From contig JAPETS010000004.1 in assembly GCA_026023565.1 (NCBI GenBank), forward strand, positions 744,001 to 808,000: DNA of 64,000 nucleotides, given 5' to 3'. This document shows, one piece after another, positions 3,001-29,759 of the stretch. Under the pieces are notes generated by a model, which was not told where the DNA came from, ran no database searches, and saw nothing but the letters and a program-made list of their open reading frames with translations. The translations under genes and the position numbers were made by a program. This DNA is from Cirrosporium novae-zelandiae. Its lineage: Eukaryota. Positions within the stretch are counted from its first letter, which is position 1, and each line of letters opens with the position of its first letter.

Positions 3001-3607
3001 ACAGCCCTGGCTCGGCTTCTGGCGCCACAACAACAACCTACTCCCCAGTTACCTATTCAGCAACAACCAGCTGCTCCGTCTCAACTAGAGAAAGTTTTTG
3101 CAATGTTTAGCAATACACAAAGTCAACCTCAGGTTCAGCCACCTCCTCAGCCAAACCCCGTGGCCTCAAGCTTCAACCTTGCCGGAATCCTCTCGTCGTT
3201 AAACTCGCAAGTTCAGGTACCTGTACCACCACAGCCGCAATCCCAGCCACAATTTAACTTTACCCAACCTCCCACTTTACAAGATATTCTATCACAATTC
3301 CAGCAGCCTGGTATGCAACAGCCTATGTACAACGGCTATCAGAGTCAACATCAAGGTTCAAATGAGAATGACAGAAAAAGACAACGAGGAAGTGGAAATG
3401 GACAGGACTATGATGATTATAATAACGGTGATCATGGTTATGGTAAAAGGGCAAAGGCGTCTAATGGAAAGAAAGGTTACCGGGTAAGAATGATATTCAC
3501 TTTAGATATGGTTATGTACTAAATTTTCTCTATAGAAGATTAGGTGCAAATGGTTTGCGCAGGGGAACTGCAGATACGGCGACGAATGTACTTACCTTCA
3601 CGAATAG
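1..3607 (+). CDS. PNUTS/Ref2/Ppn1-like PP1 regulatory protein (multi-exon, 5' end outside window)
   Basis: Exon pieces in ORFs 465-1013, 1502-2110, 2132-2566, 2932-3522; TFIIS-N-like helix (TLERFKLDKIIRLITKKG); PP1-docking RVxF motif KLRVTFKPDDSLTEVRIF; last exon encodes CCCH finger CKWFAQGNCRYGDECTYLHE with TAG at 3605-3607. Confidence 0.75.
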
Positions 3608-22324: not shown

Positions 22325-23280
22325 ATGGCATCAGCCAACAAGCAAGGCAAGATGGTAAGCTCTCTCTCTAGACAATATAAAGCTGTTACTATTTCGGATG
22401 GCCTGCGTTGACAGAAACAGCTGACTCGGTGGCCAATTCATAGCAAAATCTCGTAAGTCGGCCCGAATCTGCGGATAAGAATGAACAGCTTTTGACATCT
22501 ACTAGATAAATTACCGCATGCGAGTTACCCTTAACGATGGCCGTCAAATGACAGGACAAATGCTCGCTTTTGATAAAGTACGGACCCAGTTCTTTGTTTC
22601 TCTCAGTTTTTTTGGACTCATGTCACTGATTTACTATAGCACATGAATCTCGTCCTTGCAGATACTGAAGAATTCCGCCGTACAAAACGCAAGCCCAACA
22701 AGTCCACAGCCCCTGGTGCTGCACCATCAGATGCTCTCATAGAAACCGAAGAAAAGCGCTCCCTAGGTCTCGCAATTGTCCGCGGCACTCACATAATCTC
22801 GTGTTCTGTTGAGGGTCCTCCACCGGCAGATCCTGGTGCTCGATTGGGTGGTGGTGCTCCTGGCGGACCTAGTGCCCCAGGTGCGATGGCTGCGGGACCT
22901 GGTGTTAGCCGACCTGCTGGTAGAGGGTTGCCTGTTGGTTTGACCGGCCCGGCAATGGGTGTGGGGACATCTGCACCAGGAGGGTTCCCACCGGGTGGAT
23001 TTGCACCTCCTGGATTTGCGGGAGCACCACCTGGATTCGGAGGGAGAGGCGCAGGCGGACCACCCGGATTTGCGCCGCCTGGGTTTGGTGGACAAGGACC
23101 ACGTAAGTTTCTGCTTGGATTATTTGTGTTTTTGGTCTTATTTCCTCTTGAGAAAAGAGAAAAAGATAGTCCTAACATTTCACTCTTGAACTTATAGCTG
23201 CTGGGTTCCAACCACCACCTGGTTTCCAAGCGCCACCAGGCCAAGGACGAGGATTCCCTCCACCAGGCTTTGGGAGGTAG
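22325..23280 (+). CDS. SMB1: Spliceosomal Sm protein B, multi-exon
   Basis: KQGKM|QNL|INYRMRVTLNDGRQMTGQMLAFDK|HMNLVLADTEEFRR; G/P/F-rich tail ending GFGR*. Confidence 0.95.
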
Positions 23281-23952
23281 TGCAACACCCTTGATATACC
23301 TCACTATAAATCACGAAAATGAAACAGAGGATGAAAAATGAAGCAACACAACACCTTCGAGTTAAGACTTGGAAGGCATCAAGAATTAAATTTGCTGGGA
23401 TTTGCTAGATGGGTTGTCAGACATTGGAAGAAGGGGAGGGTTGAGAGGATAGAAAAGGGCATATGTCGGGGTGTGGAGTTTACATCGAAGGGCTGAGATA
23501 ATGAACCTAGAGGCTAATCGACTTGTCCTTCTCGAGCCCTGGGGTAAAGATGTTATTCTTTACTGTCCGCAAAGCGCTAGCTTATGGTCTTGAAGCAGAA
23601 AATAAAAACTACAGTACAGATGATCAACTATTATTCTGGTTTGTGCGATTTTTTGCGTAGCATAAAGTTTTCTACCGATTAAAATGATGGCGTTATCCCA
23701 AAAGAATAAATGTACTCACGCCAACGGCATATTATTTAAAAGCAGTGATAAGGAAGAGGAAATGTGACGAAGCAATGAATAGTGTATGATTAAGGCATAA
23801 TATGCTCCCGTTTTTTATTTCCGTTGCTAATTTTATGCCGTCTATATATACCTGGCAGGAGTTTCCCATCAAACGCAAATGCTAAAACTTTACTATCCCA
23901 TTTCTAGTAAATTAAAGCAGAAGAAAGATTCAAACAACAAAGATGAAGACTG

Positions 23953-25202
23953 CTATCTCCGCTTTTTCTTTCGTCTTCTCCTTCCATTACTGTCACCAAC
24001 AGCACCTTTAGTATCATACCCAGATGCACCCATTTCTGGAGGCACGATTCCGATCCTTACCCCTTCATCTTCGGACTCGTCATCATCTCCCATTCTCCCA
24101 CCTAACTCAGGTTCAGACGTGACGATTTGATGGCTAACAAGCTGAGATATGGGTATTGGCGTTCGTTTTGACATAGAAGAATAGTCTGGTGGGCCACTCA
24201 CATTCCTTGGTGGGTATGGTGCACGGGAATCTAACTGGTGACGTGAAGAATGGGTAACAGGATAAGGATACTGGCGAACTGGTTCTGCGGAATGGGCACC
24301 AAGATTTGATGTCGACCGCGCACGTGGATGTCGACTTGAGTCATCAGGAGGACGTGGTGACGACGATGAGGAACCGGGGTGTTGAGACTGGTAGGATTCT
24401 TGACCAGGGTAATACCATTGATATGATTGACTGTCAAGGTATGTTGGAGATGGAGGGTATGGAAGAAAGGGCGAGGGTGGCTTTTGCTGGGATTGTGATG
24501 GGGTGCGAGAACCGCCAGCAGAGGAGGGATTACTGTAGTAGCCGACTGGAACGCGGGTCACAGATGAGGAAGAATATGGAGGTGTTTGGGGATCAGAACG
24601 ATTTGAGCCAGTTGAAGGCCTATGTTTGTGTCTGGATGGTTCAATGGCACGGGTTGGAGGGGTACCGGAAACACGACGACTTTTGACCTTGGGGGCCTTG
24701 TTGGCACTTCGAGCTTCATCGACCTGATATCTCTGGCGACGATGTTCCAAGGCATCAAGCTCTTCTCTTGTGAGGTTGACATCGGGTTGGCCTTTAGCCT
24801 GTGCACGTCGAATTCGGTACATTGCCTTGTCACAAATCAAATCCTCCTTTTCTCTGAGCGCTATTTTCGCGGCTATCGCTCGCTGGTGTTCCGCTTCGTC
24901 AGCATAGCCAACCTCATCCGAATAATCAGTTTCTCCCTCATAATCATAATCCACTTGCTGCCTTGCTCTCCTGCTTCCTAAATCAATGCCATCAAAACGA
25001 AGCTCGTCACTAACATGTCTTTTCCCCCGACGAAAACCAACCGCCAAACCAACGCCATCACCATTGTCTTCATCTGAACCGACCTCCTCAAACCTCGAAT
25101 GTTCCTCCCATTCTCTCCCCCACTTCTTCTCCTTCCTCCCCGGTCGTGCCCCTGATGGTCTTCCCCATTGGGGCGTATCGTATGGAGTTCGCGGCCGACC
25201 AC
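23953..25202 (-). CDS. Uncharacterised S/P/R-rich protein or exon continuing from YIP3 (no ATG before the DKAM segment)
   Basis: About 415 stop-free codons after YIP3 stop; motifs RPRTPYDTPQWG and ALREKEDLICDKAMYRIRRAQ..VNLTREELDALE; basic C-terminus. Confidence 0.65.
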
Positions 25203-25733
25203 CTAGACCGCCTCCTCGGAAAAAGCATTCTCGATTGGTTTGTCTAAAAAGGAAGCATGACCGAGGACAGTTACCCCGGTAGCTCCGATCAACCAGAGAA
25301 TGGTTGAGATAGGTGAAGCCCAGATACCAAGAGGGACGGCAATCACAAGCAGACCAGTCCAAAGTTGGGATGTAGTAACTCTAGACATTCCAAGCTCGAG
25401 ATCACGGCCATCAAGTTTCATAATGGCCCACCAACCTCCTGTAACAAACATAATGACAAAGAGTAACAGGAGGTTCGTCAGCAAACTGTAAACGCTGAGC
25501 ATGAGAAAAACAAGAAAATAGTTGCTTGAGAAGTAGCTGAGATTGTAGTTGACACGGGATTGGACCTCGCTAAAGTTGTGTGGTTTTGAGAGTCTCTTGA
25601 AATCACAAAATTCGGAGATAGGTTTGAGATTGGCAAATCGAGAGGTCACAGATTGAGAGCGTAAGCTATCAAATCGTCCTTGGAGGTTGAATCTCGATGC
25701 CAAAGCATCGAGAGGAATTTGTAGGCCAGGCAT
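25203..25733 (-). CDS. YIP3: PRA1-family protein Yip3 (176 aa)
   Basis: RLSKPHNFSEVQSRVNYNLSYFSSNY, WLIGATGVTVLGHASF..FSEEAV. Confidence 0.93.
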   Translation of the reverse strand: MPGLQIPLDALASRFNLQGRFDSLRSQSVTSRFANLKPISEFCDFKRLSKPHNFSEVQSRVNYNLSYFSSNYFLVFLMLSVYSLLTNLLLLFVIMFVTGGWWAIMKLDGRDLELGMSRVTTSQLWTGLLVIAVPLGIWASPISTILWLIGATGVTVLGHASFLDKPIENAFSEEAV

Positions 25734-26523
25734 GGTAACGGTTGAAAGGATGAAAAGGGTTGTATTTTTGTTTGATGTAGGGAGATGGCGTCCTTTTTCT
25801 ATTATAAAGTTGTTAGATAGGAGATCAAAAAAAGGAAAATGATTTCGGAGACATGTGAATCTTACAAGGGTAGTTTTGTGATAGATTTTCAAAGATGGAT
25901 AGGAAGGATTAAATAGATGGTTAGATAGATAGTTGCCTAGAAGGAATAGGAGGAGGAGGATGACGGGGGAGATGAAGAATGTCCAAGGCAGAAGAATGCC
26001 AAATGTTGTTTTTGCGGTAAGGCTGTGCTGGTGTTGCTGCGCTTTGTGCTCTGTGCTCTTGTTTGCTATGCTGAGCTGAGCTTGCGCTTAAAGCTGCTGT
26101 GGATTTCACTGATGCCTGGGGTGTCTTTTTTGTTCAATCAGGGGAAAATGGAACAATCACAGGCATAAGGCCAGATTGACCATCCAGCTAAGCTTAGTTG
26201 AGCTTAATGGTAGATCCAATCTGATAACAAAACAAACCAAACAAACCAACTAAAACCCACTTAAGGTCCTTTTTTCACTCTCATCATCTTTTTTAATGAT
26301 GAGAAAATCTTCTCAACTTCCCCCTTCCTTGACCTTCGCCATGATCAAGTAAAATATCAAAAGGATACCTTTTTTTAATGAGTGATGAGTTGAGGAAACT
26401 TAAGAAAAATAAAAAGACGGTAAAATCAACTGCTTTTTAACGAAACTTCTTTCTTTGCTCAGGCCGTCTTGCACACCGCTGGGCAGCACTACTGCAGCCA
26501 GAACCCACCAGTTCCGATTACCT

Positions 26524-26534: not shown

Positions 26535-26872
26535 TCGTTACATCCACCTCATACTGTGTACAAAGGTCAGATCTTTACTGTCTGACTAGGGCAAGAAGCT
26601 TCATTCGATCCTGTGGACACACCACTAGGTCAACCACAGAAAAGTCTTAATTCTTAATCAATTGAAACCTTGGTACTTTGCATCGCTGTCGTGATTCACG
26701 TGCGTGAAATTTATTACATCCCGCTTGACAAACCAGAGTCAAAGGACAGAAGTAATCGCTGAAGGCCTCTAAAAAGTCTTCTTGCCACGAGTGGCTTACT
26801 TTTTGGTATTGGTTTGATTTGGTGTGAAATCCATTTCTCTACATTCCTCTACCTCCAAAGTCTCTAAAACCC

Positions 26873-28159
26873 ATGACCATGCGACTCTCCCTTCGTCCAG
26901 CAACCTTCCTTTTCGCCCTCCTCCTCCTCCTTCCCCTCATTGCCGCCTGGTCTCCGCAAGACCACGAAATATTCCGCCTCCATGACGAAGTTCTAGTCGC
27001 AGAAGGATCCGATGCAACCTTCTACAGCTTCCTAGGAGTCCCTCCTACTGCCTCCTTAGAAGACATCAATAAGGCGTATCGTAAGCAATCCCGGAAGATA
27101 CACCCAGACAAGGCGAAGCAAGCTTTCATTTCCTCGTACTCCAAATCAAAATCAAAGTCTGGCTCAAAAAAGAACAAGAAACCCGGCGTCCACGTCAGCA
27201 AACCTCCGTCACAACGTGAAATCCAAGCTGCTGTAAAGACTGCCAATGAACGATTCACTCGTCTTGGTCTCGTCACGAAGATTCTTCGAGGGCCCCTCCG
27301 TGACCGTTATGATCACTTTCTCAATAATGGCTTCCCTATCTGGCGTGGAACGGGCTATTACTACGCTCGCTTCCGACCTGGTCTTGGTAGCGTTCTACTA
27401 GGCCTTTTCATCGTTGGAGGAGGTGCAGTACATTATACCGTTTTAGTACTAGGCTGGAGACAGCGCCGTGAATTTGTCGATCGCTACATCAAACGTGCTC
27501 GGCGTTCGGCATGGGGCGATGAAACTGGTATCAGAGGTATTGGTGATTTCACTGGTGGCGGTGCAAGCGTTCCTTCTGCTGGAATAGAATCTCAGGAGCA
27601 GCAGCAACCAGCTTTAACTCGCAAACAACGTCGTGAGATGGAGCGACAAGCAGTCAAAGACCGGAAAAAGGCCTCTCACAAAGGCCAACCTGAGAAAGAG
27701 GAAAGCTTCACCCCACCCCCAGGTCGTGTAGAAAACATGGGCACCAAAAAGCGTGTAGTCGCTGAGAATGGAAAAGTTCTTATTGTTGATGCTGTGGGAA
27801 ACGTGTACCTGGAAGACACTGATGAAGATGGAAATATTGGCGAGTATCTGTTGGACCCAGATGAGCTACCGAAACCAACAATTAAGGACACGGCGTTGGT
27901 TCGATTACCAGTTTGGGTTTGGAGAAGCAGCATGGGAAAGGTCCTTGGTACAAAGAAGGCGGGTGAAGAACTGACAGAGGAAGAGGAGACTGAAGAAGAT
28001 AGTAGTAATGAGGGAGGTATTAATACTCCACCAAGCTCGGAAGAAACTAGTGAGGAGACTGAACTTCTCAATACCATATCAGCCGAGAAAAAGTCGGACA
28101 ATAGTAATGCTATCAGGAAGAGGGCAAATAAGAAGGCTGGCAAAAGACAAAAAAAATGA
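26873..28159 (+). CDS. ERJ5: ER membrane J-domain protein (Erj5-like)
   Basis: Signal peptide, AWSPQDHEIFRL, TFYSFLG..AYRKQSRKIHPDK, RYDHFL.NGFP.WRGTGYYYARFRPG, TM segment. Confidence 0.88.
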   Translation: MTMRLSLRPATFLFALLLLLPLIAAWSPQDHEIFRLHDEVLVAEGSDATFYSFLGVPPTASLEDINKAYRKQSRKIHPDKAKQAFISSYSKSKSKSGSKKNKKPGVHVSKPPSQREIQAAVKTANERFTRLGLVTKILRGPLRDRYDHFLNNGFPIWRGTGYYYARFRPGLGSVLLGLFIVGGGAVHYTVLVLGWRQRREFVDRYIKRARRSAWGDETGIRGIGDFTGGGASVPSAGIESQEQQQPALTRKQRREMERQAVKDRKKASHKGQPEKEESFTPPPGRVENMGTKKRVVAENGKVLIVDAVGNVYLEDTDEDGNIGEYLLDPDELPKPTIKDTALVRLPVWVWRSSMGKVLGTKKAGEELTEEEETEEDSSNEGGINTPPSSEETSEETELLNTISAEKKSDNSNAIRKRANKKAGKRQKK

Positions 28160-28880: not shown

Positions 28881-29759
28881 ATGACGGGTAAGGGGCCATA
28901 ATAAGTCCATAACCCTTATTACTCAACCACTAACGCTTCTATAGTCTCACCAATAGATTTCTGTATGACCTCCCCCTCCACCATACTCCCCACCTCTATT
29001 AATCCAAACCCCCACAGACAAAGTCCTCGAAATCTCTCCCACCGCAACCCAACAACAGATCCGAGAAGCCTATAAACGGTACCAACCCCCCTTCCATCTC
29101 TGCAATCCAATTCCTAATACCCCTCCAGTGCAGCCCTAAAATCCCATCCAGACCGTGTCCCTGCCAACTCTTCTGAACGCCCCGCCCGCACCAAGAAATT
29201 CCAACAAGTAAATGATGCCTACTACACATTATCAGACCGATCCCGCCGCCGCGACTACGATGCCGCGCACAAGGTGCAGACCCCGCTATCATCAGGTGCC
29301 CAAACCCCCTCCTCCGCCGACGAAGATATCCCGCGACCAGAAGCAGGGGGTGCCGCTCCCGGTGGTTTCCCATGGTCGGCATTTGGATTCGGAGGGGGAC
29401 AGAGCAGCAGTGGTGGATATACGCCCTCAAAGGATCAGGAGGCATTTTCGTCTGCCCAATTCGGCGATGTGTTTGAGGAAATGCTGAAGGAGGAAGGGAT
29501 GGCCGATTCCAGTACCTCGCAGCCCACTTCCAAGTTCTGGTCCATTATCGGGGGACTTTCGGGGGCTGCCATGGGATTTATTGTGGGAAATATGCCAGGT
29601 GCTGTGGCGGGTGTGGTGGCAGGGAATCGGTTAGGAGCCATTAGGGATAAGAAGGGAAAAAGCGTCTATGAGGTCTTTGCGGAATTACCGCAAGGAGATC
29701 GGGCGAGGATCTTGAGCCAGCTTGCTGCGAAGATTATCGGAGGAGCAGTTGGGATCTAG
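28881..29759 (+). CDS. DnaJ-domain protein, 4 exons
   Basis: DFYKVLEISPTATQQQIREAYKR|AALKSHPDRV..KFQQVNDAYYTLSD..RRRDYD; Gly-rich C-terminal hairpin, AIRDKKGKSVYEVF. Confidence 0.9.

Follow-up and report, generated by a model that had tools for sequence, protein, structure and literature searches.

How an open reading frame (ORF) of several hundred codons that overlaps the end of YIP3 in another frame, and has no ATG near its beginning, could be translated is the question raised by this locus of Cirrosporium novae-zelandiae, which lies within a window of 64,000 nt (the whole stretch of DNA analyzed here; JAPETS010000004.1, GCA_026023565.1). The YIP3/PRA1 coding sequence (positions 25203 to 25733, minus strand) encodes a short form of 176 aa and 19.7 kDa, is present as a single copy in the genome, and scored 145 bits against the PRA1 family (PF03208; cut-off 30), being an ordinary member of the PRA1/Yip3 family. 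In the -1 frame, an ORF runs from stop to stop over positions 25380-23953 (475 codons) and continues for 415 codons past the YIP3 stop; thus, the coordinates agree with the overlap and the continuation of about 415 codons described in the initial annotation. The earliest ATG of this ORF is found at 24822, some 127 codons past the YIP3 stop and within a predicted helix (tail residues 110-144), as had also been noticed. An upstream ATG in the -1 frame was absent from the Cirrosporium locus, and was found in only 9 of the 79 loci of the comparative sample described below.

The other frames close earlier. In-frame readthrough or editing of the YIP3 stop was considered and rejected, because translation in the 0 frame would end 74 codons on and cannot enter the tail; among relatives with a -1 tail, this closure occurs 20 to 122 codons past the stop. 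The +1 frame at the Cirrosporium locus closes after 44 codons. Upstream of the gene, an intron of 67 nt in the 5' UTR (25799 to 25865, minus strand), with canonical donor, branch, and acceptor, was predicted from the sequence; it holds an ATG that would be lost on splicing. In a search for transcript-derived contigs, an intron-like 5' UTR stretch of one relative (L059) was absent from two loci of other species (L044 and L063), and a further locus (L031) retained the intron. Neighboring ORFs are located at 26828-28159, 29118-29759, and 22640-23197, all on the plus strand. Judging from their translations, two neighbors, one of them divergent from YIP3, are presumably J-domain proteins, and a neighboring exon convergent with the tail is what we take to be part of an SmB-type snRNP-like gene.

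The same arrangement has been described in Podospora anserina, where a programmed -1 frameshift occurs at U_UUU_UCC in YIP3 (Pa_1_8470), followed 2 nt downstream by a stem or pseudoknot with a 3-nt bulge (Malagnac et al., 2013; PMC3777964). According to the text of that article, a GFP fusion band of 88 kDa was detected in Podospora, the long form was scarce and localised like the short form, and a deletion was not rescued by the long form alone, whereas the short form alone could rescue it. The frameshift was reported as conserved across Pezizomycotina, and Capnodiales and Ophiostomatales were described as having a +1 arrangement (PMC3777964). Later, a review passage restated the PaYIP3 frameshift (PMC5009743) and a table row gave it a value of 0.01 (PMC9375231); in the literature searched, no later study of the YIP3 frameshift was found, PMC9437294 holding no relevant passage. 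PaYIP3 and Cirrosporium YIP3 share a U_UUU_UCC site that lies five codons ahead of the stop, a 2-nt spacer, a stem with a 3-nt bulge and the stop codon in its loop, a lineage-specific tail in the -1 frame, and a 5' UTR intron, the latter predicted in Cirrosporium.

By analogy, a single mRNA would bear both YIP3 and the tail ORF. Most ribosomes would terminate at 25205-25203 and release the PRA1 protein of 176 aa, while a minority would pause at an RNA structure just past U_UUU_UCC and slip by -1, five codons before the stop. The 3' ORF counted from the shift site (23953 to 25224, minus strand) has 423 codons and is single copy in the genome, and the predicted long form is a Yip3 of 593 aa and 66.3 kDa with a tail of 421 aa, which would retain all membrane segments and lose just the last four residues of the short form. 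In this context, the YIP3 locus is almost certainly an example of the known programmed -1 frameshift, which we infer to operate in Cirrosporium. The initial annotation had favored a short Yip3 and a long fusion from one locus, and this idea is supported by the conserved site, the first stem of the RNA structure, the -1 ORF, and the published mechanism; its fallback, a -1 shift at the run of five U, is the mechanism reported in Podospora (PMC3777964).

Relative loci were retrieved through alignment of the Yip3 protein and not through the motif. Of 239 confirmed loci, 80 were retained, and one of these (L054), which ends before the stop, was removed, leaving 79 loci. Clustering at 93% identity produced a representative set of 47 rows including the window, which excludes two loci that are too short (L009 and L021) and two of the +1 type (L061 and L075). 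The sample favors close relatives (68-78% identity) and does not represent the full span of Pezizomycotina. Among 63 loci with sufficient sequence, 61 have a -1 ORF of 334-566 codons, so that overlap and frame are conserved in relatives; in the remaining two, the tail lies in the +1 frame. Judged from these comparisons, the arrangement of YIP3 and the -1 ORF is not a chance product. Two near-identical YIP3 genes (L057 and L058) are followed by -1 ORFs of 334 and 425 codons, respectively, and L057 is possibly misassembled.

The shift site (25218 to 25224, minus strand; Phe171-Ser172) is identical to that of PaYIP3. The codons for Ala-Phe-Ser read GCT TTT TCH in 77 of the 79 loci, creating a U_UUU_UCH site, and site and first stem are both intact in 76, the misses being L021 (cut short), L061, and L075. 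Of the last seven codons of YIP3, six are conserved, and at these the share of the majority codon is 0.91-1.0; upstream, it averages 0.59 over 73 conserved columns, of which two reach 0.9. Because a stop closes the -1 frame two codons ahead of the Phe codon in 21 of the 79 loci, entry into it is confined to the last eight codons. That this frame stays open for 52 codons upstream in Cirrosporium is a local accident, for in 36 of 79 loci a stop interrupts it within 5 codons. U_UUU_UCC does not match the X_XXY_YYZ heptamer, and re-pairing of the tRNA-Ser would be mismatched. Furthermore, the spacer to the stem is 2 nt, outside the canonical 5-9 nt; melting of the lower stem would leave a distance of 6 nt to the upper one.

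The initial annotation had proposed another route, in which alternative splicing from a donor at 25327 to an acceptor in the YIP3 stop codon at 25203 removes 125 nt (25203 to 25327, minus strand) and gives a fusion of 551 aa without the last PRA1 segment. Its arithmetic stands, including the GT, the stop context, the length of 125 nt, and the open frame of 551 aa, but a functional intron found no support and was rejected. The match of phase carries no weight, as dozens of other in-frame donor/acceptor pairs exist. A GT is present at the proposed donor in 14 of the 79 loci, with G at position +5, the fungal norm, in just two of those 14; no phase-compatible GT is common to more than 20 of 47 loci, and a branch motif precedes the acceptor in one of 47. 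The YIP3 stop is TAG in 75 of the 79 loci, as an acceptor would demand, but it is TAA or TGA in the other four, where the AG is lost and the tail kept; moreover, pairing of the loop would also be expected to preserve the stop context, whose conservation follows from a conserved RNA structure overlooked in the initial annotation. The intron would also remove the invariant PRA1 residues P141, W147, L148, G150, and A151. In Podospora, the 12 cDNAs described were unspliced over the coding region and the junction (PMC3777964).

Database proteins longer than the short form were also informative about splicing. In two of 128 such models (P0015 and P0032), the break falls at residue 135, just as the proposed intron would require, but the point at which the Yip3-like part stops takes 19 different values across the 128: in 64 models it is residue 175, after which the sequence resumes at varied positions of the tail, and 3 models have no tail. 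The model identical to the Cirrosporium locus (P0003) implies another intron of 32 nt (25261-25230, worked out by hand), which is probably a prediction artefact. Scattered break points and inconsistent introns fit the repair of a frameshift by gene finders, and we regard splicing from 25327 to the stop codon as having next to no chance of being the route to the long form.

With the frameshift as the preferred explanation, the structure downstream of the site becomes the main point. Stem 1 (25184 to 25215, minus strand) is composed of a lower stem of 4 bp, a 3-nt bulge (25190-25188), an upper stem of 6 bp, and a 9-nt loop (25205-25197) that opens with the YIP3 stop codon. It belongs to the minimum free energy (MFE) fold and is recovered unprompted by RNAalifold, while the stability of the 86-nt element as a whole does not exceed that of its shuffles (z = -0.24). 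Pairing in the upper stem is complete (100%) over 44 distinct rows, with a two-sided change from G-C to A-U at one pair in 3 rows; compared with the Podospora insert, Cirrosporium shows a swap between U-A and C-G in the upper stem, and the bulge differs as well. A search of Rfam over positions 23500-26500 gave no match at E<=1.

Beyond stem 1, we propose a longer pseudoknot. The loop (25203-25197) would pair over 7 bp with a 3' strand at 25154 to 25160 (minus strand), forming stem 2, and a 4-bp G-C hairpin at 25163 to 25173 (minus strand) would form stem 3 within the connecting loop. In this model, stem 2 is reached from the bulged stem 1 across a loop of 2 nt. Proposed stem 2 ends about 15 nt past the end of the published reporter inserts, which, like the one of 59 nt that gave 1% shifting against a background of 0.3% in yeast, do not hold its 3' strand (PMC3777964); proposed stem 3 is a further difference from the element as described in the text of that article. 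The energy of stem 2 is -8.8 kcal/mol, versus -5.5 for pairing with a nearer strand.

Comparative data are consistent with the far strand. In stem 2, 98.1% of cells are paired across rows, and two-sided changes occur at two pairs, from U-A to C-G in L017 and L079, which belong to different clades, and from G-C to A-U in four rows; the 8-mer that opens its 3' strand is present in all 77 loci with sufficient sequence. In stem 3, three pairs are kept in 100% of rows, with no two-sided change. The published inserts stop at tail codon 19 (PMC3777964), and synonymous invariance runs past that point (codons 21 and 22, 44/44; codon 23, 42/44); at 26 conserved columns farther downstream, synonymous conservation averages 0.48 and reaches at most 0.78. 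These figures are to be read with care, as the model of stem 2 was derived from the same sequences and its covariation rests on about five events. By chance alone, about 0.17 of stretches of 45 nt would hold a perfect partner for the loop, for which reason the Cirrosporium window alone proves nothing about stem 2. Kinship among sequences can beat all shuffles in a shuffle test, and on a stricter measure 33 of 500 shuffles equalled the number of covarying pairs. Pair 31-84 is broken in two rows (L017 and L023) and, outside the representative set, in L026 and L034, and pair 27-85 is broken in four. RNAalifold, which draws no pseudoknots, joins the C run to a later G run instead of forming stem 3. 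This G run (25152-25149, minus strand), after stem 2, is conserved, tail codon 25 being GGG in 39 of 41 loci, and its pairing with the C run is a possible alternative conformer.

A simpler stimulator would be stem 1 alone, or a two-stem pseudoknot in which the loop pairs with a nearer strand (25175-25172) inside the published insert, the far strand being conserved for the peptide it encodes. This explanation is compatible with frameshifting, and we consider it possible, if somewhat doubtful. The near 4-bp stem is 93-95% paired and formable in most rows, and compensatory changes have been reported by the authors for their pseudoknot (PMC3777964); in our reconstruction, however, two-sided changes are lacking from the near stem, most rows form two of its four pairs as G-U, and a single pair is broken in 6 of 44 rows. 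Conservation of the far strand coincides with invariant Gly-Arg-Pro residues, as selection on the peptide would predict, but such selection does not account for the synonymous invariance of tail codons 21 and 22. Covariation at pair 31-84 was also assessed at the protein level, on the 28 of 153 proteins that hold the segment: a compatible residue was found in 9 of 9 with predicted A versus 14 of 19 otherwise, a difference that is not significant (p = 0.14) and so favors the simpler stimulator. Near and far pairings may also be two conformers.

On balance, the stimulator is probably a three-stem pseudoknot. That this model, which spans about 62 nt (25215-25154), is correct and also new to print is in our judgement an even chance; no statement of a three-stem YIP3 knot was found in the literature searched, which for PMC3777964 covered the running text through the discussion. 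If the proposed model holds, it would resemble the three-stemmed -1 pseudoknot of SARS coronavirus in topology alone (PMC1110908; PMC3575852), differing in its cellular gene, non-canonical site, 2-nt spacer, bulged stem 1, and far smaller third stem; no homology is claimed.

The two loci of the +1 type bear on the same structure. In L061 (stop codon and intron at 3029-3081) and L075 (1513-1565), the U run is lost and an intron of 50 nt lies directly after the stop, inside the loop. Once this intron is taken out, the tail falls in the +1 frame, and stem 2 could form with its full set of 7 pairs, though the loop is then read in another frame. We propose that lineages of the -1 and of the +1 frame alike retain the knot, some of which would assemble it solely after splicing. 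This '+1' class may in fact use a -2 shift, since TTC TCT would let the P-site tRNA-Ser re-pair perfectly two bases back, an idea based on these two related loci.

The base of proposed stem 3 also touches a further explanation, by which the tail would be also, or only, a separate protein, made by re-initiation at tail codon 17 (25176-25174, minus strand) or from a transcript of its own. The description of the ORF as lacking an ATG holds for Cirrosporium, where codon 17 is ACG, but not in general: among the 47 representative loci, codon 17 is ATG in 22, GTG in 16, TTG in 3, and ACG in 2, and many database entries start there. Against initiation at this codon, it is TCG, GCG, or GGG in the other 4 loci, and TCG in the Podospora insert, and in Podospora a band of fusion size was seen (PMC3777964). 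Its G is invariant and its middle base nearly so, both of which an RNA structure could impose; the start-like codon is probably a by-product of this G, which sits at the foot of proposed stem 3. Moreover, a separate protein leaves the conserved U run and the open eight-codon overlap unexplained, making it highly unlikely as the source of the tail. Frameshifting, by comparison, predicts translation of the segment before the first ATG; this segment is conserved at the protein level, with synonymous sites free at residues 44-81, as expected if translated.

Concerning the tail itself, 439 relatives were detected at E<=0.001, and it is homologous to the tails found in other filamentous ascomycetes. 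A two-helix segment (24700 to 24897, minus strand; tail residues 110-175) shows amino-acid conservation with free synonymous sites, and an AlphaFold model of tail residues 1-200 placed helices at 110-144 and 153-175, with pLDDT of 84-96 over 111-170. Outside these helices, model confidence was low, residues 1-110 having neither helix nor strand, and residues 201-423 are, by inspection, rich in Pro and Ser. No Pfam family was assigned to the tail of the Cirrosporium protein, and among 43 relatives DUF2476 was found in 3 and PBP1_TM in 1. Searches of the PDB returned no sequence match and two fold matches at E 7.7, which were disregarded, and the Atlas rows (0.80-0.81) fell below the useful range. 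The long form thus differs from ordinary PRA1/Yip3 members (PF03208) by a tail that matches no Pfam family and no PDB entry in sequence or fold. The tail may tune the amount or stability of Yip3, and would add no catalytic domain; as a best guess, shifting would divert part of the Yip3 output to an unstable or differently bound form.

In brief, the sighting itself adds little, as the YIP3 -1 frameshift is a published rarity that was correctly spotted; the new lead is the apparently longer reach of the RNA knot. Database models of YIP3 have been patched with inconsistent introns, and should be read as a frameshift. The published element did not stimulate a viral site, for which the authors propose a missing host factor (PMC3777964), and the proposed longer knot bears on this point, left open in the text of 2013, of why shifting reached 1% only and the viral site was not stimulated. 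If the proposal is true, the 3' strand of stem 2 was missing from the 59-nt insert and the 1% came from a truncated stimulator, so that this value and the lack of effect on the viral site may conceal a cellular frameshift that is far stronger. Since few cellular, non-retroviral -1 frameshifts are known, according to the same authors (PMC3777964), the true efficiency and structure of the one in YIP3 would be of interest to the recoding field.
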